A stretch of DNA of 64,000 bases from assembly GCA_031835245.2 (NCBI GenBank), contig JAVKOQ020000056.1, forward strand, positions 124,001 to 188,000, given 5' to 3'. The translations under genes were made by a program, and so were the position numbers. Positions 2,063 through 64,000 of this stretch are shown here, piece by piece; position 1 is the stretch's first letter, and every line of letters begins with the position of its first letter. The DNA is from Balamuthia mandrillaris (taxonomy: Eukaryota). The notes under the pieces are model-generated. The model did no database searches, had not been told where the DNA came from, and saw only the letters and a program-made list of their open reading frames with translations.

Positions 2063-4384
<2,322 letters not shown>

Positions 4385-35501: not shown

Positions 35502-38296
<2,795 letters not shown>

Positions 38297-42490: not shown

Positions 42491-43090
42491 TAGTAGTAGT
42501 AGTAATAAGAAGTTTATTTGCTCTAAGAGCAACACCAATCTTAACAGGAAGTGTTCTCCTTTTTCTTCCTCAGCATTGCATGCTGGGCACTTCTGTCCTC
42601 TTCAGACTGCTGAATGGCTCCCCACTTTTTTCCAATGGGCAGTCCACTACGACAAATAGCATTCATCAATCATTCTTTCCTTGGGTTGGTAATCACTAAG
42701 CTCCGTTGTTGTCCAACTAAACATTTTCCATTTGTCAGGAAGTTATGCCATAGTCATGCTGTTGTTCCTCTTTCTCCTTCAGCTGCAAACTCCACCTTGG
42801 CTACTCGAGTTCTCATCCTCTTGGCTTTCTTTTCAACATCACTTGTCCCTTCACTTCTCTCACCTTCTTTCTTCTCACCTTCCTCTTTCCTTGCTTGGCT
42901 TATCTCTTCAAGTACTACTATAGCTCAAAGTGGCCATCTTGCTTCTCAGCATGGCGAATTACTGCTTGCCTTTCCAACTCACAGTAGGCCTTGATGGTCA
43001 ACCAGCCCAATTCTGCTCTACAAACCCCCTAACTTGCAATACACTTGCTGTCTCATTTCACACAGCTTTGATCTTCTTCTACCTAAAAGT
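42491..43090 (-). mobile_element. Degenerate non-LTR retrotransposon (LINE) 3' fragment with internal deletion
   Basis: The minus strand encodes KCPACNAEEEKGEHFLL (C-terminal CCHC knuckle) and RAELGWLTI, joined to the shared 3' tail GTTGCTCTTAGAGCAAATAAACTTCTTATTACTACTA. Confidence 0.75.
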
Positions 43091-43664
43091 ATTTCCCTTT
43101 TTTTTTTTTTAATGAAAATGAGTGAAAATGGGAAGAGTTATAAAAAATTCATTGTTTTTTGAGTTCCACACTGGTTTGCTCTCCCTTGAAAGGTCCAAAA
43201 CTACCCTCTCAGAGAGTGGCAAAAAGATATCCCAAGAGTCGCTTTCCATTATAGCTTGGTAGACCCTTCGGTCTTGAAAGAGGTGTTGGAACTCTTCTTC
43301 ATCATCATCATCTGTTTCCTTTCTCATCTCTCACTTTGCCCTTTCTGAAGTTTGACCTTCCTCTTGCTGTTGAATCACAAGCTCCTTCAAACAGCAAACA
43401 CAAGAAAGGGACAAAGGAAAAGAGAAAGAGAGAGGCAAAGGCAAAAGGAGAGAGAATAGATTACTACGAGTTAATACCTGGAGTGATTTTGGCTAATACC
43501 CATTACTCCTTCTTCATGCTTTTCCCACTTCTTCTAACAAAATGTGAAATAGATGTGTCAACAAAAAGCAAATATCAGGCCTCTGAACCACTTTATTCCA
43601 GTTCCATTTGTTTCACCTGTTGTGCCCAAAGGAATTGAAAGGATCCTTTAGCTGAATTTATATA

Positions 43665-44105
43665 CAAGGACAATGGAGATGAAGAACAAGTCAGAAAACG
43701 AATTATAGAAGACTGTACAACAAAGCTCCTGTCAAGTGGAAAGAAATGCAACAGAGCTCAAGAGATGGAGCATTGTAAGCAAAGTTGTAAACAAGTCTGG
43801 AAATTATGGGCAGCAAGAGCAAGTTAGAAGTATGGAAGTTCTTCTGCATTTTATCAATCTTTGGAAGTAATGTAAAAGTAAGGAAATGATAAAAGAGGAA
43901 AAGGGGAAGGAAAGGATAGCTAGATGATACAAAGTTAGTCTGAAAGCTCATTCAACACCTTTCACTTGTAAACTAACATAACAATTGGGAAGGCATTGAG
44001 GATGAGGGAGTAAGAAAAGTAAAAGTACACTATGTATGTATAATGCTTACTTTTTTGTATAGGTTGGTGTTGCTCTCAGAGCAAATAAACTTCTTATTAC
44101 TACTA
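43665..44105 (+). mobile_element. LINE 3' fragment (same family)
   Basis: Near-identical, in inverted orientation, to 54275-54705. Ends in GAGCAAATAAACTTCTTATTACTACTA. Confidence 0.8.
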
Positions 44106-44634
44106 TTCTCTTTGTAGTAGCTTTGGGAAAAACTACCAAAAACTGCCATTTTATGTAGTGGTTTTGCAGCTTTCTCAGTTTGACAACTTCGTTTGACCAA
44201 GTGTGCTAGTAGAGCAAAAAGTACTTAAGTCAGTCCTGCTCCAGATTCCTATAATCAACAATCATACACAGAGGTAGTCAGATCAGCTTCACAAGGGACC
44301 AGATTACTATAGTAAGGAATTCCCCTTCAACAGTAACTAACACAATACAAACAAAAAGGAGAATCTCCTTTTGCTGTTCACTTGGAATATATGGCAAAAA
44401 AAAATATTTTTCAGGTCTTAAAAAAAATATTTTTCTTAAAAATTAATTTTTAGTTAAAAAAATAATATTTTTCCGTTAACAAAAATAATAAAAAAAATGT
44501 TTTTTAATTTCAAAAATATTTTTTATGGTTTGAAAACATTTTTTAAGTTCTAAAAATTATTTTTTTATAAAGCATTATTAAAAGACATTTAATATAAAAA
44601 ATCTACTATTAAACATTAAACAAAATACAAAGAT

Positions 44635-46133
44635 TTATGAATGCTGTTTTTCAAATCTATCTAATTCTGTATAAATTTGAGCTTTGTAAGCAAAAGATAA
44701 TTTGTGATCTGAGGTTAATGCTAAAGGACCCCAAATAAAAGATGCTTAATGTATGTTTTGTGTTTCCTTTTGTAAAAAATAATGTTGACCTCGTTTTGTA
44801 TACCATGATACAGTAGCTTTACGAGGTGTTGTGGAATGAACAAATGCAAGCCAAAAGTCCTCTGAAGAACCATCTTTTGGACAAATAGCATAAATGTGAT
44901 TGGCTAAAATATGGAAAGGTATGCAAGTAGCACAACCAGATGTTGTGACTTGAGATGAAAATTCGATTGAAGAGGAGGAAGCAGCTGAAGTCAAAGAAGT
45001 GGATGCAGAGAATGAAGGAGTATGTTGTCGATTTAAAGTAGTCATAGGTTGAAACAAAGTAAAACAAGGATTATCCAAAGGGAATGAAGGGTGTTGTAAA
45101 TTATAAATCAATGCTTATTCATGAAGTTTGGAAGAAAGCAAGATAGTGGAAAAAGTAGATTGAGTACCTCGAATGCATTCTTCTTCTACACAAGATTTGG
45201 GTATCAAATGAGGAATATGAGTGGAATATAACAATAGATTTGGAAATCCTTTTACCAATGAAATGGGTTTGCTCCAAGGAGCATAAATGTTGGATTTCAC
45301 TTGTAAAATGGGCCATGTTGGACGGCAGGTCATTGTAGGAGTGGGATAAATAAATTTGAAAAATAGAGGTTGGGAATGACCTTCAAGATTTACCATGAAA
45401 GGATGCAACCAACCTTTGAAATCCCAGACCCATTCCAAAGGATGTAATTCTGGATGAGTTTCATCTGTTAAATAAGAAGAGTTAATGAATGTAAAGAATT
45501 GCTCCAAGGTTTCAATATCAAATTTGAGTAATGCTTTATGAAAGGTGGAAAACATTTGATCCACATCTTCATGAGTATGTCCAGGTGGCAAAAAGAACAG
45601 TTTGATCTTGGAAAACATCTTGAGATGCACCAACCAACATAAAAAGGCCAATAAATACTTGTTTTTGTTTTCTTTGTAGCAGTTGTCAGCTTGAAGGTAG
45701 AAGGTTTAGTTGGGATGGGCTCGAAAGGGTTGTTGTAATGTTTGCATAAGAAAGTAAAATAAATGACTGATTACTAAATTGGCATTTCATGACCACTGAT
45801 CAAAATGATAACACAGATAACAATGATGATGCCCATGATCTATTAGTCCGAAACAAGAGACACCGATAAACTTTTTGATGGTCCAGCCTTTTGGGGGAGT
45901 ATGATGATGGGGAAGAGGAATGGCCTCTGTATAATCCATAATGATGGAAATGTATTTGAAAGGAGAGGCTTTGGCTTTAGCATGATGCTTGTAATACTTC
46001 TCTTTGTGTAAACAAACAAAGTGCAAATGATCACTTCGTTCCTTTTGTAAGCCTTGCAATGCCTCCACACTCTTGCATTGTTTAAAACGAACTAGAAGCT
46101 GAGCACATTGATTACATTTTCCTAATCTGGTTT
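44635..46133 (-). pseudogene. Sola-like (DUF7869-type motif) DDD transposase, main exon, with in-frame stops
   Basis: A single frame reads GKCNQC...DHL...YISIIMD...FYLQADNCYKENKNKY...FLPPGHTHEDVDQMFS...WDFKGWL...FWLAFV...VSWY, with four internal TGA/TAA stops and no frameshift. Confidence 0.8.
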
Positions 46134-46183
46134 AACACAGTACAAACAAAAAGGAGAATCTCCTTTTGGAAATTTGAAAGGGT

Positions 46184-48982
46184 TGTAACGGTGATCACGT
46201 CACCTTGTGTTTATTTGTAAGAGGGGATATGTGTGTAACAGTGTAAGTCTCTCTCTCTGTGTGTGAGCATCGTTGCTCACCTTTATATCTTTCTCTTCTG
46301 TTGAGGGTTCTAAGTGATTCTCTCTTGTTTCTCCATGTCGTCATATTCCGTTGTCAATGGTTGGTCACTGCTTGACTCTGATGCAGCTGACTCTATTCTT
46401 GCAGACTTATGTGACGTGTCTGTCAACACCATCACATGCCCTCCCTTAAGGCATGTGTTCATCCTCGAACACTCTTCAACTGCTAACTCCATGACCAAAT
46501 TCTTAGCTTCCTTGCCTTGCTCGATGGGCTCTGCACTCTTCTTCTCGTCATTCTTGTCACAATTGGGCTCTGCACTTGTTTCTTTCTTCCTTCTGTCGTA
46601 TTGATTGGGCTCCACGCTTATCTTCTCTCCTGGGTTGTTGTCTAATTCCATCCTTATCATCTCACTCTCGTCCGTTCTCGTTTTTCCAGTGTTGTTTTGT
46701 TCGGGATCTTCCGTTGTGATGTCTTGTCTGCTCTTGCCGTCATTTTCCACCTGTTTTCAGTTCTCTGCGTCTTCTGGATACATTAAAATGCAACAAAAAT
46801 CCTCATTCCTCTGCAGTCGTGGTCCATCTTTTCTTTTTCAGCTGCTTTTCTCATCCATGCTTTCTCCTCTCCTCCTTCTCTCTCAAGGTGCTTCTTCCAT
46901 ATTCATCTGTGTTGACCTTCAATCATTCTCTAGTTCACAGTTGTGGGTACTAACATCTCTTTTCTTCCCCTCTCTGCCGTCTAAGAGAGCTCGTCCTCAA
47001 GCTTTCTTTCCTTCAAAGCGTCTCCGACATCAAAACGGCCTCCTACCTAAGCCAACAAAGCTCCAAGGAATCCGCCCAGAGTAGAACTTGTATGGATTCG
47101 TATACAGCTTCTTCATGTTTCTCTTGAGTTGTTGTCGATTACTCCACAACGTCAGTCATCTCCCAACACGCCGGAAAGGCGGACCACTGGCTCCGCACCA
47201 GTGTATTGCTGGGCACCTGTGTCCCTCACTTGGCTGCTCTGCAGCTGTGCGTACAACTGGTCCAGGTGTGGCAAGTCCTTTCTCATCGTCCTATCCCACG
47301 TCGAAACTAACACGTAGGGACTCAGCAATGTCACTTTTTCGCATCGCTATACTGCTTGACTCAGTCTCATCTAGGTCGCTGGTGGCATTATCACCATTCC
47401 GGTCCTCCATGTCATCGCGGTCAATAGTTATGTCCTCGTTGATTGACTCCTCTCTGCTGGCATTCCTTAGCAGGGGTGGCGACCCTGAAGGTTGCTGCAT
47501 TAGCGGCTGTGGCTCCTCTAATGGCTGCGACTCCTCTTGTTGCTGCTGCTCATCACCAGTAGGCTGCGGTAGTAGCGCTGTCAACTCCTGCCTTAACTGA
47601 CGGGTGGCCTGCATCAGGGCTTGCATTTCCGCAAAGAGTTCCTTGAAGTCTGCGTAGCTGCTATGTTGCACCGGCAGCTTCTTCTCTGGCTGCAGGGTCC
47701 ATTCCCACGTTGGTTGCAGGGGGAATGGTGCAGAGGAATGTCCTTTCGAAGAATGTGGTGTAGAACGCTGTAGTGGCTTCCTGCATGATGGCTGCTGTTG
47801 CGGGACAAGCTGCGATGATGAGTGCCGTGGTGGCGCTGTTTGCTCAAGGCCGAACTGTTGGGGACAGCGCTTCGGCAGGGCTTGCCTCTGCAGGGTAGTC
47901 TCCTCGGGGTAATACTCTAGCAAAGAGGGCTGTGATGAGGCAGTCCGTCATGTATCATGCTGTGGCCTTGAACACCGAGAATGGCTCTTGGTCGACAACT
48001 GAGGCAGATGGTGACTCTGCTCCAATGCGATTGGTTTGTATGCTGAGCGAGGTTCTCATGAAGGGCCTGCAAGCACAGTAGTGTGGTAGTCATCCTTGGA
48101 GAGGTAGTTTAGGGGATAGTCGCTATAAGCGTCCTCACAGCGGCATCTCCTAAGCTCGTAGCCCGGTGCGTCATCGCTGTAAGCGTCCTCACAGCAGCGG
48201 CGTTCATAACCGTTGTCTGGGACACCGTTGTTGTAAGCGTCTCCACAGTGGTGGCATCCCTACCCTTCAAACCAGCACTCATCCTCGAGGGCCTCCTCTG
48301 GCGTGGGCTGCTGAGGCACATCGTAGAGGGCCACATTGCAAGCGCTTCTGCGTTCCCTTCATAGCTTCTGCTTCCTTGGCTGCACGGCTGAGACTGGCGA
48401 TGCATCCGAGGAGTGGTAGCTACAGCGTCCATTGAAGTCGTAGATGTCATACATGATAGCAAAAAAAATATCAAACAAAATGGGTTATGATGATAAAGCC
48501 AAAACCACTCGAATCAAATCAAAGGCTAGCCGGTGAGGCGTAGCTGTACAAAATCAAATCAAAAATCAAACGGCCACATCACACAAGACTGAATCCCAAA
48601 CAAAAAAAAACACCACACAATCTGCTAAGCCACTTGCACAGACGAAGCAGGGCGAACGGAAGATTGGAAAACAACACTCTGATGGTTCAGTCACCCAAGT
48701 ATTAGGATGACTACTCCGATGTCGCCACTTGTAACGGTGATCGCGTCACCTTGTGCTTATTTGTAAGAGGGGATATGTGTGTAACAGTGTAAGTCTCTCT
48801 CTCTGTGTGTGAGCATCGTTGCTCACCTTTATATCTTTCTCTTCTGTTGAGGGTTCTAAGTGATTCTCTCTTGTTTCTCCATGTCGTCATATTCCGTTGT
48901 CGATGGTTGGTCACTGCTTGACTCCGATGCAGCTGACTCTATTCTTGTAGACTTATGTGACGTGTTTGTTGACACCATCACA
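46184..48982 (-). mobile_element. Non-autonomous LTR retroelement (no recognisable pol)
   Basis: 253-bp TG...CA direct repeats at 46184-46436 and 48730-48982, TSD GGGT. On the minus strand, a PBS-like TGGCGACATCGG follows the 5' LTR and a polypurine AAGGGAGGG precedes the 3' LTR. Confidence 0.92.
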
Positions 48983-49239
48983 GGGTAAAAAATATTTTTT
49001 TAAATCATTTTCCAAAATCAAAAATAATTTTTTTTCTGAAATTTATTATTTTATGAAAATTAAAAATAATTTTTTATATCAAAAATAATGTTTTTTTATT
49101 ATATAACAAAAAAATAATATTTTTTTCACTTTTGTCAAAAAAAAATTAATTATCACTGTGTGGATACATCTCTATATAAAAGATGTAACTTCTCATTTGA
49201 GAATAAAAGTATAATTTTTTCTAATCAAAAAATATCAAA

Positions 49240-52200
49240 AAATTACACTTCAACTCTCTCATATAGCGCGCTCCTTGGCTTACTGCTAAGGTCACTTCGC
49301 TATTTGTTGTGTTTTTGGTGCTTGTTTCAAGCCCTTCCTTACTCAGAACTTATCTGAGACACGTGTGCTGTGGACTCAGCTACTCCAGTGGCAAAGAAGA
49401 GGATAAAAAACGTTTCGATGACTTATGCCATCAGAAGAGCAAACTGATGGAGATGATCAATTAACTGACCGCGATTTGCAAAGAAGAAAACGAGCCACTG
49501 TTCCAACTGCACTCGAATCTGCCTTTGCAACTTCCGGTTAACACTCTGTCAACTCCTTATGTTTCTCCCAAGGGTGTTACCTCTGCAGGTGCTGCTGTGC
49601 CAAAGGTGGTGAAACCTCTGCCTGCTGTGTTCTCCTCCAAGCATTTCTCGCTTTGCTCTGCCACGGAAACTTCTGAGGCTGGCTCCTTGTCTGAGAGTGG
49701 TTACGCTGAACCCTCAGCACTGGGCCATCCAGAACCTTCATCACCCGAAATGGCCTTGGGATAGGCTCATAGCCACCTTCCACGACCACTTTGGCAGCAG
49801 AAACCTGCAGAACGTGCTGCATACAGAGTTCTGTCACTTCTCCTTCAAAACCAGAGAGTAGTGGCAGTGTGCACGCAGCGAGCAGCAGGAGCCATGTGGG
49901 ATATGTTGGGACAAGTGAAGGTCAATGTGTTGGGATCGAACAAGTAGAGATCATTCAAGAATTCTCAGAGCATCGCCTTGGAACACGAATCCGCCTTGGA
50001 AGCCCAAAGCAAGAGAAAGCCCTCGAGACTTTTCCCTCCGAGCAGCTTGAACCACAACAAGGGGACCAAGAACAGCAAACCTTGGTACTCTTTTCACTGT
50101 ACGCACAGTCATTCGGACAAGGACTGCCGAGTCCTCTCCAAGAAAAAGAGTGATGGATCCTCCTCCTCTTCCTCTTCTTCTACACCTGCTACCTCTTCTG
50201 GTGCTCCTCAAAGACCAGCTGGCGTCTGCTACAAGTGCGGTAAGGCGGGACATATGGCAAATCATTGTCCTACTCATGGCACTTCTGCTAAGCCTCCAGC
50301 TTCTTTGCTTAACAGCATGCAGTCCCCTGTGACTGGTGTTTCTCTGGCTCCTCCTTCTGGCAGTGCAGCCTTCCCTTCTCCTTTTCCGGCTACTCCTTCT
50401 TTAAACAACATAGAAGAGAATCCCTTTCAGGAGTTTGAGCAAGCTGCAGCAGAGCTGTTCATGCTTGGTCTTGACGATCATGAAGCTCCTGCCTTCGATA
50501 ACCCCTCTCCTGCTCCTGTTGCTGCTCCTATTATGGTTCCGGCAACCTTGAACAAGCAAAGAGTTAGCAGGGTGAACACCAGCACCTCCTCTTCCTTTGT
50601 GGATCCTTCCCTTGTGGAACAGTTTCACCTCAAAACGACCCACACTCAACAGGATGTGGTTCTGGGAGATGATTCCTCTGCCTCTGTGTCTGCCGTTGCC
50701 TCCCACATTCGTGTGGCGTGTGGTACTCGGAAGTTCTTCCACAACTTCCTCATTCTCAAGCTCTCTGGTTCTACTCAAGTGATCTTTGGCCAAGACATCC
50801 TTGATAGGATAGGCATTGGTCTGTTTGGAATTCCGGTCCGCTTCCCTGGCCCTAAGCCTTCAGCACCAGACAATAAGAACATTGCTTCTTCTGATAAGTA
50901 CGTAGAGTCTCCTTTGCCTCCAGAACTTCAAAAGGCCATTGTAGACCGCATCAAGGACCTTCTTGAAGAGAACAGCGTATTCCTCAAGGTCCTTCCTGTC
51001 CGCTTCCAGAAGGGACAATCCGTTTGGATACCAGAGATCACCCTCTGATATTCAAACATCAGTATCCTATACCAGAAGTCTGGCATTCCTCCATCAATGA
51101 GCAGCTCGAAGAGTGGTACCGCCACAAGGTTATTGTGGATGCTCCCATGGACTCGCCATGGAATTCGACCATTCTTTGCGTCCCTAAGAAGGATGCTAAT
51201 GGCAATTGGACTTCAGCCTGTACCTGCATTGATCCATGAGCTATCAACTCTATCATTGTGGATATCCACTTCCATATTCCTAGTATCCTTGCTGTCATAG
51301 AGTACATCCTTGGCTTCCATATCACCAGCTCACTAGATTTAGTGTGGAGCTTCATGCAGCTTCTAATCTTTGTGCCTCACCAGATCAAGCTCACCTTCAC
51401 CTGGTGAGGGCGCTGCTACTGCTTTCGTGGAGCTCCCTTTGGGGTGAAGATCGTTCCGGCCACTATGCAGCGTCTCCTTGCCCCTGTGCTTAAGGACCTC
51501 GCTGACTGCACCGCACACTATATTGATGATTGCCTCAACCAAGCGAAGCTTTCCAATGTGCTCATCAATAGAGGCAGAGCGGGAAAAGATGTGCGACCCT
51601 TTTGGAACAAGAACTGCGATGAAGCTATCAGTGCCCTTCACCGTATCCTCAGCTCTCCTCTGGTTCTGAGCAAGCCGGACCCCAGTCTTCCGTTCCTTGT
51701 TGGTACCGATGCTTCCCAATATGGCGTTGGTGCTGTGCTCTATCAAGAGTCTGCTGATGGTATTCGCCGTTATCTTGCCTTTGCTAGCCGTGTCCTCAAC
51801 TCTGCTCAACGCAACTATCCTGCCACGAAATGTGAGCTTCTTGCTGTGGTCTTTGCCCTCCACCAGTTCCGCTGTTGGCTGTGGGGTCGCCGCTTTACCT
51901 TGTTCACAGACCACAAGGCCTTGTCGTATCTCTTTACGGCCAAGCATTCTTCTTTCATGCTTAATCATTGGGCTTTCTTGCTGCTCCAGTTTGACTTCAA
52001 CATCATCCACCAGCCTGGTGTTCAGATGGTCTTGGAAGATGCGCTTTCCCACCTCTACCAGCCCAACTTTTGGGAGGAAGATGGTCTGGCTCCACCAGTA
52101 GTTCCAAACGAAGTCAAAACCTTGGCTCTGGTAAAGAGGCAACGCAACATTCCAAGAGTTCCTTCCTTGTCCATGCTTGACGTCTCTCAGCACCCTCCAG

Positions 52201-53863
52201 TTGCTCCGTCAAGAGAACTCATCTGTTACATCAAGCTGTTTTTGGACAAAAAGGCCCCTTCTTTCATGGAAGAACAACAGGAGTTACTCTCCCGCCTCCA
52301 TCTCGCTGGCCATGAAGGTGCTGCCAATCTCTTCAACAAGGTCTGGAACGAAGGTTTCTTCTGGCCTTCCCTTCAGGCTGATTGCTTCGCTACTACCCAT
52401 TCGTGTGATGCCTGCCTTTGTTTCAACATTGCCAGGCATGGTTTTCATCCTCTGAAAACCATCTCCACCACTTTTCCCTTCAAACACATTGCCTTGGACC
52501 TGTTTGGCCTGCTCGCCACCGATGAATCTGGTTTCTGTTATGTTTTGGTGGTCACCAACATTGCCACCAGGTTTACCCTTCTCCGCCCTTTGGTTAACAG
52601 GACAGTGGCTGCTACCACCAGTGCCTTCTATGGGGTCATATGCAATTTTGGCTTTCCCAAGATTGTACAGTCAGACAACGGCTCTGAGTTTGTCAATGAG
52701 ACCATGGCTACTATCAAGGCTATCTCTGGCTTCGACCACAGATTTATTGCTGCCTATCACCCGCGAGCCAATGGTGCTGCTGAGGCCCATGTCAAGCTTG
52801 CCAAGTCCGCCCTAATGAAGCTGGTCTCTTCCGATTGGAGTCACTGGTCCACCTTCCTTCCAGCTGCCCAATTTGCGATCAATCAAAGGCTGACCTCCAG
52901 GCATAAATTGACTCCCTTTAAGCTCTTTCTTGGACGCCCTGTCAACCTTCCGAGTGATTTTTCCAACGTGGAATCCAATCCCCTTCCTGAGGCTGACCGC
53001 CTTGCACAAATTGCCAAGTTGCATTCTGTTGTCTGGCCTGCTGCTTTTGATGCTACTGACCTCTACAACCAGATTGTGTCTGTGACGCATGACTCTTCTG
53101 TTTCCTTATTTGAATTCAAGCCAGGTGACACTGTTATGCTTCGTCATTCTGCTGCCACCTCCAAGATGGATCCGAAGTATCTCGGCCCCTTCTCTGTCAA
53201 ACGCAGAACCAAGAGTGGTGCATATATACTAGTGGATGTTACTGGCAACGAGTTGAAAGATCGTATTCCTCCTTCTCTTCTTAAGCTAGTTCCCCCTCTC
53301 CCTTCTGGTTCCTTGATACTCCTATCCTCTACTCCAGTTCTTCCTGATAAGACCGATTTGGAATCTCAAGCCGACCCTGATGCTTCTGATGATGTTAATT
53401 CCAAGTCTGATGATGATAACAATGATGATTACTCCAAGTCCTACGAAGTTAGCAAGGTGCTAGACCACTGTGGACCTGCCAACCGCCGAGAATACAAGGT
53501 CAGATGGAAAGGCTACTCTCCTAAGTACGACCTCTGGATTCCAGTCAAGAACTTTGATGATCTTCGACCTGTCAATACCTACTGGAAGAAGCTTTGTTTG
53601 AAAAGGGGGTGATGTTGGAAAACTCCAACATAATAGCCCTTCTTCTCTTCCTGTCGACCTCTCCCTCATGCCTGTCAACCTGAGGAAACCTCTTGGTGTC
53701 CAACTTCTCCTTTCTTGAACTTCTCCTTTCTTGTTGTTTTCTGTCTCTGCCCTTTTATGCTGATATTCTCTGTTCTTCTTTTTTGGATAATTGTTCTAGC
53801 TTAAATACTGCCTCTCCTTGCTTCTTCTTCTTCTTCTTTTTCCTCTCAGGACAACTTACAACA
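49240..53863 (+). mobile_element. Ty3/Gypsy chromodomain-bearing LTR retrotransposon, degenerate, 5' LTR not seen
   Basis: Gag knuckle CYKCGKAGHMANHC, eroded protease, RT (SPWNS, HYIDD, partly deleted), RNase H (TDASQYGVGAVL), integrase (H..H..C..C, SDNGSEF, NGAAE), chromodomain YEVSKVLDH...YKVRWKGY. PPT AAAAGGGGG, then putative LTR TGTT...AACA ~53614-53863. Confidence 0.92.
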
Positions 53864-54274
53864 AAACACAAGATACTTTACTATCACTTGTACTCTTCAC
53901 TTTTAGTAAATTAAGTTCAAGTCTCATACTTACTTTATCTCCACCATCATTCCTGTTCTTATTTTTTATGACAATTTATCCATCAAATTATTGTACTTAT
54001 TTATTGTAATATATGTAATGAGCTGCGCCATACAGCGCAGCTCTGTTTGTTTTTTCAATATTTTATTTTTTTTCCAAAAAATTTATTTTTGTTTATTAAA
54101 CAAGAAAATCAAAAATATATGATAAAATTGGTGAAGAAACTATTCAATGATACCAATTTGATAACTAAAGGAAAAGAACTTTATTTGAGTGAAGAAAAGA
54201 GAGAAGAGAGAATGGGAAAGGTATATGGAAGAGTGGTATAACAAATAAATTATTTCAATATCAAAAAGTGTTTA

Positions 54275-54808
54275 GTAATAAAAGTTTATTTGCTCTGAGA
54301 GCAACACCAATCTATACATAAAAAGTAAGCCTTGTACATACATAGTGTACTCTTACTTTTCTTACTCCCTCATCCTCAATGCCTTCCCAATTGTTACTCA
54401 ATTCACAAGTGAAAGGTGTTGAATGAGATTTCAGACCAACTTTGTATCATCTAGCTATCCTTTTCTTTCCCTTTCCTTTCTTCTCTTTTCCTTGCTTACA
54501 TTACTTCCAAAGACTGATAAAATGCAGAAGAACTTCCATGCTTCCAACTTGCTCTTGCTGCCCATAATCTCCAGACTCGTTTACAACTTTGCTTACATTG
54601 TTCCATCTCTTGAGCTCTGTTACATTTCTTTCCACTTGACAGGAGCTTTGTTGTACAGTCTTCTATAATCAGCTTTCTGACTTGTTCTTCACTTCCATTG
54701 TCCACACTCCAGATTCTAAAGCGATCTTCCCAAAGGTTAGGACACCTTAACAGGAAGTGTTCTGCTGTTTCTTCCTCAGCATCACAAGCAGGGCACTTGC
54801 TATCCTCC
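54275..54808 (-). mobile_element. 5'-truncated LINE insertion with 14-bp TSD
   Basis: TCAAAAAGTGTTTA at 54261-54274 and 54809-54822. Encodes KCPACDAEEETAEHFLLRCP...VWRLWAAR and carries the shared 3' tail. Confidence 0.88.
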
Positions 54809-55317
54809 TCAAAAAGTGTTTATATTCATAATTTATTTTCAATATAAATATTTAAAAAAATAAAAGAATATATTGTAAATATAGTTATTTTTGTGTTTAT
54901 TATTTTTTTTTTGAAGGAAAAAATAATTTTGGAAATAAGAAAACCTTTTTTTTATTCTTTTTATAAAATGAAAAATAATATTTTTGTGATAGAAAAATAA
55001 TTTTTTTAAGGCCCCAAAAATAATTTTTTTTGCCATATAATCCAAGTGTGAAGCAAAAGGAGATTCTCCTTTTTGTTTGTACTGTGTTGTTTGCTAATAC
55101 AGAAAGCTTGTATAAGAGGGTATTGGCTGTGCTGTATGACCCAAGATCTGCCCTTCACAATGAAGGTTGCTAAATTCTTTGTTGAAAGGAAAGGGCACTT
55201 TTGCATCGTATGACGCACTCAACACTCTTGCTTGCTAGAAAAATTTGAAAAAATTTGCTTTTCATTGGATAGGAAGGATAGCCAATGCCTTTTATACAAT
55301 AGTAGAGAGAGCTGAAG

Positions 55318-56208
55318 AGGACTGATTTGCACTGCACAGCCTAGCCAATGCCAGCCATACAAAAGAAAAGAGAGCAGAAAAGGGCTAATCTGTGCTGTAT
55401 GGTGCAGCTCATGCCTGCCATACAAAAGAAAAAATTGTGGAAAAAGGCTGATCTGCACCGTACAGTGCAGCCCATGCCCCTCATACAAAAGAAAAGAGAG
55501 TGGGAAAGGGCTGATTTGCACCATATAGTGCAGCCAATGCCTGTGAAACAAAAGAAAAAATTGAGGAAAAGGGCTGATCTGCACTGTACAGCACAGCTCA
55601 TGCCTGCCATACAAAAGAAAAAATTGTGAAAAAAGGCTGATCTGCGCCATATGGCGCAGCCTATTCCTGCCATACAAAAGAAAAAATTGTGGAAAAAGGC
55701 TAATCTGCACCATATGGCGCAGCCCATGCTTGTCATACAAAAGAAAAGAGAGCGGAAAAGGGCTGATCTGCGCCGTATGGTGCAGCCCATGCCTGTCATA
55801 TAAAAGAAAAGAGAGCAGAAAAGGGCTGATCTGTGCTGCACAGTGTAGCCAATGCTAGCCATACAAAAGAAAAGAGAGCAGAAAAGGGCTGATCTGCGCC
55901 ATACAGCACAGCCCATTCCTGCCATACAAAAGAAAAGAGAGCAGAAAAAGGCTGATCTGCGCCATACGGTGCAGCTCATGCCTGCCATACAAAAGAAAAG
56001 AGAGCAGAAGAGGGCTGATCTGCACTGCACAGCGTAGCCAATGCCAGCCATACAAAAGAAAAGAGAGCAGAAAAGGGCTGATTTGTGCCATACGGTGCAG
56101 CTCATGCCTGCCATACAAAAGGGTTGATCTGCACTGTACAGTTGATGCCAGCCATACAAAAGAAAAGAGAGTGAGAAAGGGCTGATCTGCGCCGTACAGT
56201 GCAGCCAA
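55318..56208. repeat. Tandem array of ~15 units, 63-bp period, each with an 18-bp palindrome and an A-rich tract
   Basis: Unit consensus GGGCTGATCTGCGCCGTACGGCGCAGCCCATGCCTGCCATACAAAAGAAAAGAGAGCAGAAAA. Unit starts at 55384, 55447, 55510, 55573 ... 56077. Confidence 0.93.
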
Positions 56209-56690
56209 CGCACTAGTCTCAAAATTTGAATGCAAGCAAAAAAACAAAAGAAAAAGGGATAATGGCATAGCAATGCTGGTCTCTCTTTCAAACAAAATGC
56301 AGGTTGAACAGATTTGACAACTGAGAACAATACAAACCGTTATGCCTCACAGTCCTTTCACAAGTTGAACTCAAAAGAAAGAATTATGAGGTTGGATGTA
56401 AGAAAGCACATTCAAGCCCCTTTATTATGGGAACAAAAAGCTTTCAAATTTCCTTTAACTTGCTGTCACTTCTTCCAGCACCATATCAGCAATGCTCTCT
56501 GTCATTGGTTGTCCTCCACAAAGTCTGCAGCAAATCACAGCGATTTGACTACCAATTAAACGAAATTCAAAAGAAAAAAAAGAGGGCCAAAAGCAAAACA
56601 AACTCCCAAAATTTTAGTTTGTCACAAAAGTGCACAACCATTCACACTGTTCACACATATTCCTTGCTTTTTATTTTTGCTGTTGTGGTT

Positions 56691-59600
56691 ATGTCGGACA
56701 ACAAGAGATTGACAGTGAAAGAACTGCGGCAAAGGATCGAGGACCTCAGTGGACAATGGATCACCAAGGACTCCAAATCTGTCTTATCGCACAAATTGCA
56801 AGTGCTACAAACTCCTACGTCAAATCCTTCTTCCAACCAACCATTGGACCTCTCGGAAACAGATGAAGGCTCATCTTCCTCCCCGTCCAACAGGTAAAAC
56901 AACTTCAAGCTATCACTATGAAAGGTTTGTGCTTGTATTTTTGTGTTATAGTCAATGACTGAACGGCCACTATTCGCTTTGCTTCTTTCTTCCTCAAGAG
57001 AGAAGGGCCAGTCCAGCTCCATCCTACTTTTGCCCTTTCTCTTCTCTCATCCAAATTATTATTTGAAGGGATGGTGTTGACTGCACTGTACAGCACAGAT
57101 CAGCCCTTCAGCTCATTTGCTGCACCAAACGGCACAGTTCAGCCCTTCAAATCCTCTAGTACTTTAGAAGGGAAATCATTGGCTGCACCATATGACGCAG
57201 CTTAGCCCTTCAAACCTCTGGTATTTTTGAAGGGTGTTGGCTGCGCCATATGGCACAGATCTGCCTGAAAGATCAACACTTTCCTTTTATAGTTTGGGTG
57301 ATGATTGCGCCATATGGCACAGATCACAACTGCTGCCTTAATTTCTTGTTTGGCTGGCAAGAAAAGGTTATAGGCTGCACCGTATGACGCAGCTCATGCC
57401 TTTGGCCTTTTTCTCTCTTGTTGACTAGTTGAAGGGCATTGGCTGTGCCATATGACGCAGCGGATACCCTCCACAGTTTTTCTTTTAACTTTGTACTGTC
57501 ATTAACTTCTTATGTTTTATCAGGTTGGCATTGACCTCAGACCAGAAGGGTTGAATAAGCTGCTGGCCACATTCAACTCAGGTGGCATTTTGTCTTTTGA
57601 TGAACACTCTTCTTTATTATTGATGGAAATGCCCTCAGCTCTGTGGGTGCATCCAGAAAGCAATCAACAAGAATATGTATATCTTGGAGGTAACCATCAA
57701 TGTGCAGCAGCCCATGTATTGTACTGTGAAAACTCTCCAAAGCTGAAGGAGTTAACTTGGAGGGCCAAAGTGCTGCCATTTAATGGCAAACAACTTCCAA
57801 GTGTGGCTGTCTTGGACAAGGTACAATACCTTGGAGTTTTATGTTGTTTTTTCTGTTTTTTAACACGGTGACTTACTCATATTTCTTGGAAGTTGTCTGC
57901 CTGGGACAACCTGGTGTTGTCCGAAGGAGTCAATCAAGAGACAGAATGGGATATGGTCTGTTTTGTGTACAATCATCTCACAAAAACACCAGAGGAGCTG
58001 TTACATTATCTGGTAGGATGGTCCTTCTTTGGTTGCAGGCAAGCTCTGAAATGATTGCTCATTTTCTCTTTTTTGTGTTGGAGAGGAGGGGGTTTTGTAT
58101 TTTAGAATTCACAAACTGCCTCCCAAGATGCCCATAATGCTCTCACCTTTGATCATGTTCAATGTTTGAAAACAGTGGCAAACAAAATGCAGAAATTCCC
58201 AGAGTCTTGGAGTTATATTCAGGAGAAGGACAAAGAAAAGGGGGGCTGGGTGTTTACTCCTTATCACTTGAGAGAGAAAATGCCAAGCTCCTTATCAGAT
58301 GAAACCTTGTTGGCAGCCTTGAAAGAGATATGGGCAAGGCACCTTGAGGATCCCAAGGAAGAATGTTCTGTAACCATCATGAGATGGTTTTGGTGAAGGA
58401 GGTGGAGAGGATTGAGGTGTAGTGGTGTTTGAGTGGAATGGAGGAGAAGCTGGTTCATCAGAGGGTATGTATTGCTACCAGCAAGGAATGAATAAATGAA
58501 TGAAAGATAGCTATTGAAAGGAAAAAAAAAAGAAAAGCAAAAAACAACAACCAAAGACCTCTTCCAAACACCAGGCCAAAAAAGCAAAAAACCATCATCG
58601 TGGCAGACCCAAACTCAACACTCCTCCTCAACCCTCCAAACAATTGGCCCACCAACTCAACAAATGGGGAAAGGATGTGCTTGCTTCTCATTCCCCTCCT
58701 ACCAAGTTCAAAGTGAACATTTATGATAATTTACCAACACATGCTCCCTTGATGCTTGATTCCTTGGGAGTACACTGCCAAAGTAAGTCTTTTTTGGGTT
58801 ATTTTTTCCAAAGAACTCAGATTGCTGTCTGTCTAATTTTCTCTCATTCTTCCCAGACCATTATGTGGAAAGGGTTTTGTTGATAACTACCCATTATAAT
58901 CACTTGCACTTGGCCATGAATCAAATCAATGCCAAAAAACAAAAGCAACATCAGCTTTTGATTAACTTGAAGCTAGAAACAGTTCTTGTTTTTGGGTACA
59001 AACCTCACCATTCCAAGCATAACAACAAACCACAATGGTGTGAGAATGGCATGTTTGTGGCAGTGTGGAACAAAGGCCAAACATAGTTGCAGGATGATTC
59101 TAGTTCGATTACTTCTTCTCTTGTTGGCCTTGGAGACATGGCAACCAACTTCAGTGGTGATTCCAATCAAGGGACCTCAAGCTCAGGAAGGACAAGTGGC
59201 TGATCAGGCGAATCTCTCTTCTTCTCCTGTTCCTCCTTTAAATGTGTATCATTATTTGCTGAACACATTCACAGAGCCTAAAGATGTGGTGTTGGCCTTT
59301 AATTCCACAACAGGTTGTTTGCCTGCAGTTTGTTTGGAAAGTAAGTTCATCCTTTTGTTTTTCCTTTCCTTGTTTCTTTTGGTAATGAACTAAAACATTT
59401 ATAAATGTTAGCAATGCGTCATTTTGTGGCCTTGTTTCCTGGTTCTAGAGCCACAAACTTAGCAGAGCATGCAAAATTATTAGCAACCACTGTGTTGGAT
59501 AGAAACAAGGTGCAAAAAGGCTTAGTTGCTTGGAAGAAAAAACAAAAAGTTCTGAAAGAAGATTTAGTACCAAAAAATGCAGATGATGAAGATGATGAAG

Positions 59601-59926
59601 TTCCAAAAGATAGTAATCAATCTGAAGAGGAAGATGAAGAACTTCCAAAGCTTACCTCCAAAAACCACAAAAAATCAAAAGCACAACAAAATGAAAAAGA
59701 AAAAAGTAAAGAAGTAGAAGTAGAAGAAGAAGAAGAAAAAGAAGGAGAAGAAAAAGAAGGAGAAGAAGAAGAAGAAAAAGAAAGAGAAGAAGAAGAACAA
59801 GAAGATACAGAAAGTAAAAAGAACAATAATAATAGTGATGAGGATTTTTCAGATTCTGATAGCAACACATCTTCTCAATCAACCAAATCAAAAAAAGATA
59901 AAGGAAAAGACAAATTAGACAAATAA
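56691..59926 (+). pseudogene. Transposon cargo gene: SAP/HeH-like, ParB/Srx-like, degenerate N6/N4 DNA methyltransferase-like, charged tail (multi-exon, disrupted)
   Basis: MSDNKRLTVKELRQRIEDLSGQWITKDSKSVLSHKLQ; YVYLGGNHQCAAAH; PLNVYHYLLNTFTEPKDVVLAFNSTTGCLPAVCLE|TMRHFVAL; E/K-rich tail. GT-AG introns, several stops and frameshifts. Confidence 0.5.
57075..57465. repeat. Seven copies of the same palindrome separated by divergent spacers
   Basis: GCTGCRCCRTAYGRCRCAG-like copies starting ~57081, 57120, 57183, 57241, 57305, 57375 and 57443. Inverted relative to the 63-bp array. Confidence 0.85.
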
Positions 59927-60106
59927 ATTCTGTTTTTGAAATATCAACTTTCAAACAACAATAATAAAAATGTTTTCTTTAATATTTATAAAATACTATG
60001 CTATTCATATAAAAAATAATTTATGATTTTCCTTATTAAAAAAAATTTGAAAAAAAATTATTTTTGATTTTGGAAAAATATTTAAAAAATTATTTTTTGC
60101 CTTTTC

Positions 60107-60600
60107 CTCTGCCACCCATAGCTTTCTTGCCACCACGTCAATATACACATTGAATAAGAAGGGAGACAAAACTCCTCCTTACTTAACTCCTCTTTCTACT
60201 AGGAATTCCTCAGAGAGTTGCCCATTCATGCAAATGACACTTGTCATACCACAGTACCACTCTGCAATGATGCTCACTGCTGCCTCTTCTGCTCCTCTTT
60301 TGCGCAATGTCCTTGCCAGTATGTCATGGTCAAGCATGTCATATGCCTTGCTGATATCCAACAGAGCAATATAAGTATGTTCTTTGCTTCTCTTCATCAG
60401 GCATTTCTTCAACTGCCACACTTAATCCATGACTCCTCTTCCTTTTCTAAATCCGCTCTGGCAATCACTTATCCACCCTTGCTCTCTTGCTTGCATATTC
60501 AACTGCACCAAGATAGCTCCCTCAAACACCTTGGCTGCGTTGCATAAGAGGGTAATTCCTCTATAATTTGCTGGGTTCTGCTATCCCAAATTCTCTTACT
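60107..60600 (-). mobile_element. LINE reverse transcriptase fragment (pseudogene)
   Basis: PANYRGITLL, LLDISKAYD.LDH, ERGVK*GGVLSPLLFNVYID. Confidence 0.88.
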
Positions 60601-63385: not shown

Positions 63386-63435
63386 GGAAGAATCATTTTA
63401 AGCCTTGGTGTGGGAGCTGCTTCAGGTAGAAGAGG

Positions 63436-63606
63436 TAGTAATAGTAATAAGAAGTTTATTTGCTCCAAGAACAACACCAATCTATACATAAAAAGTAAAC
63501 ATTAGTACATACATAGTGTACTCTTACTTTTCTTACTCTTTCATCCTCAATTGTTATAATGGTTCACAAGTGAAAGGTGTTCAATGAGCTTTTAGACTTA
63601 CTTTGT
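63436..63606 (-). mobile_element. LINE 3'-UTR fragment (same family as 54275-54808)
   Basis: Matches 54273-54447, including TAGTAATAAGAAGTTTATTTGCTC..GA.CAACACCAATCTATACAT. Confidence 0.85.
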
Positions 63607-64000
63607 AGGTAGAAGAGTTTGAAGTTGCTGCTTTCTTGAATCCATTCCAAAGATCTTTTTCTTGTCTTCCCTGGAACTTTCCTGAGCCTAGAACTTAAGA
63701 ACCAAGAAACCAAGAAGTTACTCGCTTAGGCTTCTGCCTTTGAAGACAAGCTTGAATTCCTATGGATGTGCATGCTGTGTACTCCATTTAACTACAACCC
63801 CAAAGTGATCTTTCTCTTTTGAACTTTCTTGAAGAGCGACTTTCAGAAAGCAAAAATATATTTAATAAACAGAAAAGACCATTTGTAAGTGTGTTTTTGT
63901 TGCTTGTTGCTTTTCATGTGTTTTTGTTAAAGGGAAGTTATTTGTAGTTGAGAAGGCAACCAAGGAATGAGGCTTGGGATTGAGAGTGATAGTTTCTCCA

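Follow-up and report, generated by a model that had tools for sequence, protein, structure and literature searches.

A decayed Sola1-like DNA transposon in Balamuthia mandrillaris bears a head-to-head gene for a likely ParB and degenerate methylase-like protein

We find that a 64,000-nucleotide stretch of the Balamuthia mandrillaris genome (contig JAVKOQ020000056.1, positions 124,001 to 188,000; hereafter the window, numbered from its first letter) contains one copy, now decayed and nested, of a multi-copy cut-and-paste DNA transposon whose transposase belongs to DUF7869, which we take to correspond to Sola1. Divergent from the transposase lies a cargo gene that likely encodes a ParB/Srx domain joined to a methyltransferase-like domain of the beta-class N6A/N4C type, the latter with degenerate catalytic and SAM-binding motifs. 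Our preferred reading, to which we assign a probability of about 0.55, is that this head-to-head gene of a Sola1-like element provides a ParB plus inactivated methylase-like protein that binds the element's palindromes and counteracts silencing.

Results

The 35-bp terminal inverted repeat (TIR), AACACA[A/G]TACAAACAAAAAGGAGAATCTCCTTTTG, occurs at exactly three sites within the window: 44339 (+), 46134 (+) and 55088 (-). The first (44339..44373, + strand), already proposed as a TIR in a preliminary description of this DNA, is real; it marks the transposase-3' end of the outer element, is identical to the TIRs of a nested insert at 34/35 positions and borders AT-rich subterminal sequence that extends to about 44560, with the stretch 44339-44524 being 79% like the right end of that insert. 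The other end had been placed at ~60106, and there an AT-rich subterminal region on the cargo side does exist (59960..60104), but it has lost the last ~45 bp, TIR included: a LINE reverse-transcriptase fragment adjoins ~45 bp before the expected end, and no right-hand TIR or target-site duplication (TSD) of the outer element is present in the window. A contig of run X12 does connect the TIR end with AGGCAAAAAATA, the reverse complement of 60093-60104. Once the insert and a single GTTT are excised, 6809 bp remain, a remnant in which one transposase exon, the right-hand TIR and some of the cargo gene are missing, rather than the reconstructable ~6.8-kb element that had been envisaged. The stretch between the two genes (56221..56690) is also a remnant, in which tblastn finds the transposase N-terminal exon of other copies to be missing, and the match of contig 12 of run X12 to the locus ends at 56305. 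Because the N-terminal ~205 residues of the transposase are absent from the whole window (no tblastn match to residues 1-193 of model P0002 anywhere in it), the divergent gene start at 56220-56690 is incomplete. This copy is dead, and movement or protein binding is possible only in trans.

The insert at 46134-55088, rightly described before as TSD-bounded, is itself a non-autonomous member of the same family, with perfect TIRs (35/35 identical), both subterminal ends, about 0.9 kb of its own sequence and three further insertions within. Its flanks are GTTT/GTTT (left copy 46130..46133, right copy 55089-55092), and removal of the insert with one GTTT restores the acceptor TTAG/CAA ACC, placing a TAG splice acceptor immediately before QTRLGKC, the point at which the full-length model P0002 resumes. 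The 4-bp TSD ascribed to the family is thus confirmed for this insert, a single insertion that does not establish it for the family as a whole. Read as AAAC/GTTT, this one TSD agrees with 3/4 positions of the AWWT target preference that is a hallmark of Sola1 (PMC3845634); supplementary table 1 of PMC12477816 lists Sola1-1_Ec32 with a bias to A at the end of its target, and the Sola1 preference therefore varies. The empty-site joint 46133/55093 was not among the 15 listed of 171 read joints.

The minus-strand transposase called in the preliminary description is real, an RNase H-fold DDD enzyme with the triad of Sola (Sola1) transposons. Its 3' exon (44746..46129, - strand; QTRLGKC to the stop) matches Pfam DUF7869 at E 2.7e-42 and carries the DDD motifs along with three internal in-frame stops; the acceptor AG and first base of this exon lie at 55093..55095 (- strand), with intron from 55094 upward, and an exon change after YVHFSK is common to models P0002, P0004 and P0035. 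The proposed triad, IIMD / QADN / HEDVD, stands across 32 aligned sequences: D66 is conserved in 30/32, with a gap in the other 2, D149 in 32/32, and in HEDVD the third ligand is D189 (32/32) or D191 (31/32), E188 not being conserved (23/32). The structure model (pLDDT 78.8) has an RNase H-like fold, with Metnase/Mos1 (Z 9.2) and retroviral integrases as its closest structural matches. No relatives of the transposase were found in viral contigs. We rejected 55093-56500 as a coding continuation of the transposase, and likewise the 63-bp array there as a 21-residue protein repeat, since intron and array occupy this stretch and the true N-terminus is absent. In about 3% of one RNA run, from one sample, depth did not exceed 0.5 over the transposase or 0.07 over the cargo gene.

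The notion of a cargo-carrying family was borne out, as the second gene belongs to a multi-copy TIR family, and it lies inside the element on the strand opposite to the transposase both in the window and in 7/10 other contigs bearing a transposase model, so that other transposase copies do include it. Linkage in these copies was derived from accession order: a cargo model lies 1-3 accession numbers away on a contig of equal length in 5/10, and the chimaeric model P0035, which joins antisense cargo to the transposase N-terminus and therefore indicates head-to-head gene order, accounts for 2/10. The remaining transposase contigs (3/10) have no cargo model, and 4/11 other cargo-bearing contigs have no transposase model among the matches. 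In three DNA runs the two genes have similar contig depth, far higher than that of the unique LTR interior (in run X1, 473-619 vs 315-553 for the two genes and 17-24 for the LTR interior, which is not a copy number).

The plus-strand multi-exon cargo gene had also been correctly recognised, but in this copy a deletion, a small inversion, a frameshift and a stop disrupt it; its exons are 85-100% identical to annotated models. The exon 1 region (MSDNKRLTVKEL..., 56691..56924, + strand) lacks about 50 codons of other copies. The exons for the ParB/Srx-like core and following helical region (57524..58375, +) read GGNHQ where other copies have GGNHR, those for the methyltransferase-like domain (58557..59480, +) hold the stop and the frameshift, and an acidic/basic low-complexity C-terminal tail runs to the stop codon (59481..59926, +). 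The cargo matches no Pfam family at a meaningful score, and neither a search of 1.84 billion representatives nor two word-indexed searches turned up a relative outside its own family. Residues 6-38 of the cargo can be read, by eye only, as SAP/HeH-like, a reading that gained no support.

Each domain identity is drawn from weak but concordant lines of evidence. For a likely N-terminal ParB/Srx domain, the motif GGNHRCAAA is a GxxR-type candidate, and its Atlas features resemble clusters in which DUF3723 occurs in 31% of members (score 0.94) and ParB_N in 35% (score 0.91). A ParB profile from six metagenomic neighbours, its members chosen by the same motif being scored, gives the cargo 8.0 bits, where 1200 shuffles reached no more than 4.9, and pairwise comparison with the exons of the metagenomic locus L204 is non-significant save for the ParB part (E 0.027). 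The domain has no Pfam, PHROG or PDB-sequence match, and tblastn of this part against plasmids and phages returned chance matches only. A beta-class methyltransferase-like domain is likely over the motif X-I stretch, the only part (~45-55 residues) with a significant signal: an unbiased PHROGs scan gave phrog_18293 'methyltransferase' at E 1.4e-4, a family that also matches the neighbour gene of metagenomic locus L188 (E 5.9e-7), and 16/18 weak phage tblastn matches fell on one 43-residue stretch, 14 of them annotated as DNA methylases. A 42-sequence beta-class profile, seeded from matches picked by the cargo itself, scored 18.1 and 15.8 bits (maximum 9.8 in 1000 shuffles), and hhalign gave 65%. 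Conversely, a profile of the methylase domains of L188 and L198 scored the cargo at -0.4 bits, under the shuffles, a profile of their helical region did not score on it either, Atlas offered no usable match for the methylase piece, and single-sequence AlphaFold of this part was uninformative (pLDDT 33). We consider it very unlikely that the gene was passively captured or is an orphan without a role for the element, its domain calls being chance motif matches. The want of a significant family match or outside homologue and the uninformative fold fit such an account, but the two motifs keep the order and orientation of Sola1-1_Ec32 and L198, the PHROGs hit was unbiased, and most copies retain the gene. 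The chromatin or DNA-binding accessory protein suggested earlier is therefore probably the right kind of protein, narrowed here to a predicted ParB-like plus methylase-like one.

The family's own models do not show the motifs of active enzymes ([DNS]PP[YFW], and an FxGxG SAM-binding loop with a downstream acidic residue). The methylase-like exons carry degenerate motifs instead (YDNLP; LLNTFTEPKDVVLAFN..TG..AVCLE..RHFVAL): motif IV, placed by eye, is YDNLP in 6/6 models covering it (full form YDNLPT), motif I is AFNPTT or AFNSTT in 5/5 covering models (AFNPTTG form), and F occupies the position of the SAM-binding acidic residue (RHFVALF). Because this degeneration extends beyond the locus copy to the family's models, catalysis has probably been lost, leaving a putative pseudo-methylase. 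The same counts, YDNLP in 6/6 and AFNPTT/AFNSTT in 5/5, make it unlikely that the protein is instead an active N6-adenine or N4-cytosine methyltransferase that modifies the palindromes of the element, or DNA close to them, as has been proposed for Sola1-1_Ec32, although L198 (DPPW, ELFSGTAS) and L188 (DLPF, DFFAGTAS) keep near-canonical motifs and self-modification has been put forward in the published accounts of related elements (PMC12477816; bioRxiv 10.1101/2025.02.11.637652).

Both palindrome arrays reported before are present. The 63-bp tandem array (55280..56220, 13.4 copies), in the transposase intron, holds 13 scored cores of an 18-bp palindrome with four CpGs, whose ancestral form CTGCGCCGTACGGCGCAG was inferred from the repeat units; 7 cores lie in cargo intron 1 (57080..57461) in the opposite orientation, their flanks inverted relative to the 63-bp array; and the non-autonomous insert retains a single well-preserved core (54023..54040). 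Palindromes thus flank the promoter region, in an intron of each gene. Across 21 cores, 63/168 CpG positions are changed, every one C>T or G>A, vs 11/210 other positions, and CpG observed/expected is 0.17 in the cargo gene, 0.26 in the transposase and 0.74 in a host-gene region. Decay of C to T at CpG fits deamination of host 5mC, which again speaks against an active adenine or N4-cytosine methylase, and its extent, a point against the anti-silencing reading, shows that the palindrome sites ended up methylated.

Related metagenomic transposase loci have a G-x-H-R ParB-like neighbour in 7/79 cases, 6 of them head-to-head, the latter being 6/13 loci with at least 1.5 kb upstream. Near-canonical methylase motifs occur in two of these seven: the L198 neighbour combines OTU, ParB-like and methylase motifs, and that of L188 combines N6_N4_Mtase (Pfam E 1.5e-7) with SET. 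Repeated palindrome families of 18-19 bp, their sequence particular to each locus, were found in 7/40 loci of at least 3.5 kb vs 0/40 simulated controls, and 1/7 host-region controls scored a 3-copy family, its source a coding repeat. Among the seven ParB-positive loci, L172, L204 and L222 have at least 3 palindrome copies, L188 has 2 and three have none; in L204 a palindrome lies inside the intron splitting the ParB motif. In a quick tree of 92 transposase cores (P0001, 14 database proteins and 77/79 loci; a short search, with L204 unlabelled), for which ParB absence on short contigs is uninformative, ParB-bearing rows were not clustered (7 changes for 8 rows, 117/500 shuffles as low).

Among 10 loci that have a palindrome family, 7 lack a detected ParB gene (L209, for example, has 20 copies), and palindromes could therefore serve the transposase. 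On this reading they are its binding or synapsis sites, or else loading sites for a ParB clamp that assists end pairing or target choice, with the accessory gene aiding transposition instead of opposing silencing. The TIR's own palindrome (AAAAGGAGA-N-TCTCCTTTT) and the core kept in the non-autonomous insert point the same way. We nevertheless hold this to be rather unlikely, as the arrays are kilobases away from the ends, occupy introns beside the promoter region and are unlike the TIR in sequence, the domains fused in relatives are chromatin enzymes (SET, OTU), and VANC target motifs are likewise described in intronic tandem arrays (PMC5735166).

Discussion

The organisation of this element had been taken as undescribed, but two published systems precede it: Ectocarpus Sola1-1_Ec32, with an opposite-strand gene encoding ParB plus N4C/N6A-methylase (PMC12477816), and Bostrychia Plavaka, with ParB genes beside palindrome arrays (bioRxiv 10.1101/2025.02.11.637652). 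Work from 2025 pointed to the ParB-methylase accessory genes of DNA transposons as perhaps encoding a new class of self-binding and self-modifying proteins, their function there being a proposal. Likened by description, not sequence, Sola1-1_Ec32 is also a DD(E/D) TIR element with a 4-bp TSD, nested insertions, termini beginning AAC (AACCG there, AACAC here) and one accessory gene opposite to the transposase with ParB-like and N4C/N6A methyltransferase domains. It differs in its 21.5-kb length and 282-bp imperfect TIRs, the Balamuthia element being smaller with 35-bp TIRs, in its host, a brown alga rather than an amoeba, and in a methylase recognisable as a domain where ours is degenerate and missed by Pfam; the excerpted account does not mention palindrome arrays (PMC12477816). 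Plavaka (EnSpm) PAG2/PAG3 offer a ParB accessory gene adjoining tandem inverted-repeat arrays and proposed to bind its own element, and a Plavaka methylase and SET gene resembles the L188 neighbour, but these elements have another transposase superfamily, span 17-19 kb, and fuse ParB to a 2OG oxygenase with the methylase as a separate gene (bioRxiv 10.1101/2025.02.11.637652).

Two further systems share single features. The VANC proteins of VANDAL elements (Arabidopsis Mutator-like) are TE-encoded accessory proteins with anti-silencing work, a likeness we draw by inference, and their motifs are short, element-specific and family-varying, multiplied in tandem within introns and elsewhere outside coding sequence; unlike our palindromes, these are 8-9-bp and non-palindromic, VANC is not described in the excerpted text as related to ParB or methylases, and its function is demonstrated where ours is predicted (PMC5735166). 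DIRS1-borne N6A-methyltransferase domains are transposon-borne methylases with lost catalytic residues, and chlorophyte-type Dam fused to ParB-HTH exemplifies eukaryotic ParB-linked methylases, but the former are part of a retrotransposon polyprotein, and the methylase group is not the one with the circularly permuted beta-class pattern of our element (PMC4738411). What is new here is the amoebozoan host, the probable pseudo-methylase and the breadth of the layout across unrelated elements; new as well are intronic CpG-rich palindromes eroded at CpG only by C>T/G>A.

On our preferred reading, the cargo ParB-domain protein is predicted to bind the 18-bp palindromes of its own element and, once bound, would keep the promoter region that the two genes share accessible despite host CpG methylation, both roles being inferred by analogy with Plavaka PAG3 and VANDAL VANC. 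A wider proposal, tentative and rather unlikely, is that a self-recognition module derived from ParABS, made up of a ParB clamp, parS-like intronic palindromes and an effector, is carried by Sola1-like transposons throughout the eukaryotes. The clamp would load at element-specific palindromes hidden in introns, spread along the element and deliver a swappable effector (active 6mA/4mC methylase, SET or OTU), and the amoeba methylase would act as a dead base-flipping shield over the four palindrome CpGs against host 5mC. Were this true, the protein-palindrome pair of each family would make up a natural library of sequence-specific epigenome modifiers.

These findings extend the ParB-methylase accessory class to Amoebozoa, and the locus suggests that such a gene may be retained after loss of catalysis. 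They also supply a candidate target, an 18-bp palindrome with four CpGs that lies on both sides of the shared promoter and is kept in a non-autonomous derivative. As the module recurs in metagenomic loci with different palindromes and effector domains, the resistance of DNA transposons to host methylation outside plants becomes directly testable.

Results

Structure and decay of the outer element

The minus-strand transposase of the outer element (44339-60106) matches Pfam DUF7869 (E 2.7e-42), which we take to be the Sola1 transposase family. The best of its 35 matches are models labelled Balamuthia mandrillaris by their source, at 77-95% identity; that species or a close relative is the probable origin of the window. 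At 27-44% identity come metagenomic proteins and those of Thecamoeba and invertebrates. The DDD triad proposed in the preliminary description is upheld by residue conservation: all 32 aligned sequences have D149 and D189, 31 have D191, 30 have D66 (the other 2 are gapped) and 23 have E188. An AlphaFold model of the transposase (pLDDT 78.8) has Mos1/Metnase (Z 9.2) and retroviral integrases as structural matches, and Foldseek returned no match to the model at E 0.001 or better. Triad, 4-bp target-site duplication and AAC termini are consistent with Sola1, a putative assignment made by these features.

The family TIR has three copies in the window, at 44339 (+), 46134 (+) and 55088 (-). The latter two are identical at 35/35 positions with GTTT on either side, and excising the insert (46134-55088) with one GTTT restores TTAG joined to CAA ACC AGA, so that the suspected duplication is real; in the full-length transposase model P0002, an exon ends in YVHFSK and the protein resumes exactly at QTRLGKC, the restored junction. 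The insert itself belongs to this family as a non-autonomous member: on the left it resembles the cargo-side subterminal region of the outer element, and on the right the 44339 end. Nested within it are an LTR element, a retroelement of gag-pol-chromodomain type and LINE pieces. The LTR element (46184-48982) has 254-bp LTRs that are 97% identical, TG...CA termini and a GGGT duplication; no pol-like ORF was seen in it, its longest ORF lacks a Pfam match, and its empty site is present as a joint in sequencing runs X3 and X12. The retroelement (49250-53965) reads Gag (CCHC)-RT-RNase H-integrase-chromodomain and has sharp family boundaries at ~49248 and ~53965; RNA reads cover its relatives, and no LTR pair was detected for it within the window. 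Fragments of high-copy LINE families (42493-44105, 54273-54811, 60119-60421 and 63435-63607) crowd the element both inside and out, and several have the end AATAAACTTCTTATTACTACT in common. Elsewhere, a host gene region at 27100-29750 (-) carries ~20 dispersed ~102-bp cysteine-rich coding repeats, and long (CAA)n tracts lie at 3680-3915 and 37415-38246, the latter 830 bp with interspersed CATAAGA units.

A TIR search of the window found no right TIR for the outer element, where a LINE RT fragment follows 60104. In run X12 one contig continues from the TIR end into 60093-60104 read as its reverse complement, and other copies therefore do end in a TIR there. Less the insert and one GTTT, 44339-60106 measures 6809 bp, in agreement with the ~6.8 kb first described; that an element of this size can be reconstructed from the locus is not supported, the window copy being a remnant with missing parts. 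The first ~205 transposase residues match nothing in the window and the remaining exon has 3 internal stops, while the cargo gene (56691-59926, plus strand) is without ~50 codons after exon 1 and ~60 codons mid-gene, and carries a short inverted piece (58427-58474) and a stop plus frameshift near 59085-59133. Because parts of both genes are missing, the intact element must be longer, and gap sizes suggest ~8 kb or more.

The second gene is integral to the family

Leaving out the database models P0052 and P0057, which match the window itself, transposase models come from 10 contigs. For five of these, a cargo model within 1-3 accession numbers sits on an equally long contig (KAL6070433-435, KAL6040634-636, KAL6068537-538, KAL6063526/529 and KAL6066937/940). 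On a further two the model is P0035, in which mis-splicing has fused antisense cargo with the N-terminus of the transposase; such a fusion implies that the genes stand head-to-head. As read from annotation and not from DNA, both genes are thus linked in 7/10 transposase contigs, and in 7/11 counted from the cargo side, bearing out the proposal that this gene forms part of the family. Summed contig depth, which is not a copy number, is alike for the two genes in each of three DNA runs and far exceeds that of a unique LTR interior (473-619 and 315-553 against 17-24 in X1; 109-163 and 104-155 against 14-22 in X3; 12-34 and 15-28 against 0-2 in X12). We regard a family with an integral accessory gene as real; that the gene is a mere passenger is improbable.

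The cargo resembles ParB joined to a degenerate methylase

Sequence searches found no cargo relatives beyond this transposon family, and Pfam gave no match. An unbiased scan matched the C-terminal region to PHROG 18293 'methyltransferase' (E 1.4e-4), and 16/18 sub-threshold phage matches, 14 of them annotated DNA methylases, land on one 43-residue stretch. A beta-class methylase profile, seeded from the cargo's own sub-threshold phage matches, scored the cargo at 18.1 and 15.8 bits against at most 9.8 in 1000 shuffles. In the N-terminal region a 'LNKLLATFNSGG' helix precedes GGNHRCAAA; Atlas features place this region near unnamed eukaryotic clusters, DUF3723 (0.94) and ParB_N (0.91), and a profile of six metagenomic neighbours scored it at 8.0 bits against at most 4.9 in 1200 shuffles. 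Neither a methylase profile from metagenomic loci L188 and L198 nor a helical-region profile recognised the cargo, and pairwise scores against locus L204 are weak. Judged from sequence, the cargo is probably a ParB plus pseudo-methylase.

The methylase motifs are degenerate in every cargo model covering them (YDNLP against D(L/P)PY, AFNPTTG against D-x-x-GSG, and F against the SAM-binding E). That the accessory protein is an active self-marking methylase is accordingly an unlikely reading of this family; near-canonical N6A/N4C motifs make L198 and L188 the better candidates for active enzymes. Both are transposon-linked fusion proteins: L198 (711-4283, -) combines OTU, ParB-like, acidic-tract and methylase motifs with DPPW, and L188 (1196-5743, +) combines N6_N4_Mtase (E 1.5e-7) and SET with a ParB-like motif.

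ParB-like neighbors and palindromes recur

Scanning metagenomes with the transposase alignment, we examined the best 79 of 504 confirmed matches (23-43% identity). By motif scan, six of these 79 loci (L171, L172, L188, L198, L202 and L222) have an ORF with the ParB-type G-x-H-R motif, which in L204 is split by an intron that itself contains a palindrome. ParB-like neighbors thus accompany 7 of the best 79 of 504 loci, and 6/13 of those with at least 1.5 kb upstream, head-to-head with the transposase in 6/7; ParB PHROG matches are weak (L172, E 0.017; L202, E 0.013). Weak Tudor-like ORFs, an Endonuclease VII ORF and a Ulp1-type protease also lie beside related transposases (L228 2493-4778; L235 2612-3928; L196 9342-10574; L237 2-679).

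Families of at least three 18-19-bp palindromes occur in 10 of the best 79 of 504 loci, and in 7/40 long loci against 0/40 Markov controls, their sequence differing locus by locus. Overlap with ParB is partial: such a family is present at 3/7 ParB loci, and no ParB gene was detected in 7/10 palindrome loci. Around its DUF7869 transposase, L209 (185-5515) has 20 dispersed copies of a 19-bp palindrome (TCATCCCAG-N-CTGGGATGA), and its 6-kb contig yielded no ParB gene. Within the window, 13 palindrome cores lie in the transposase intron, 7 in cargo intron 1 (flanks inverted) and 1 in the insert. That the accessory gene instead aids transposition, or that the transposase itself binds the palindromes, seems to us a minority possibility, if the foremost of the alternatives.

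The ancestral palindrome was probably CTGCGCCGTACGGCGCAG, with four CpGs. Its CpG positions are altered in 63/168 cases, every change being C>T or G>A, compared with 11/210 at other positions, and CpG observed/expected is 0.05-0.29 in the element against 0.74 in a host-gene region. Loss of this kind at CpG is what host 5mC, through deamination, is expected to leave behind. Young TEs are reported to bear 5mC in another amoebozoan (PMC12344493).

Discussion

We give somewhat better than even odds, roughly 55%, to the prediction that the accessory protein recognizes the element's own palindromes, in introns flanking the shared promoter region, and would counter silencing in cis and in trans, its methylase-like domain acting without catalysis. 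VANC offers a precedent for anti-silencing by a TE-encoded accessory protein (PMC5735166), and inactive TE-borne methylases are covered in PMC4738411. More tentatively, Sola1-like elements may deploy a ParB clamp on their own parS-like palindromes with swappable effectors, here a dead methylase that would shield CpGs from 5mC.

That the organization is undescribed, as the preliminary description suggested, is not supported by two sources. Sola1-1_Ec32 of Ectocarpus carries, on the strand opposite the transposase as in the window element, a gene for a 1104-aa ParB plus N4C/N6A-methylase, and such proteins were proposed as a possible novel class binding and modifying their own element (PMC12477816); in Plavaka elements, a Bostrychia preprint places ParB genes next to arrays of tandem inverted repeats and also reports methylase + SET genes. 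In literature searches no account of this amoeba family was seen: among the matches listed, Balamuthia goes unmentioned in one search and DUF7869 in another. The kind of system is a recently described one with a putative function, to which the window family adds an amoebozoan host, a probable pseudo-methylase and defined intronic palindromes.
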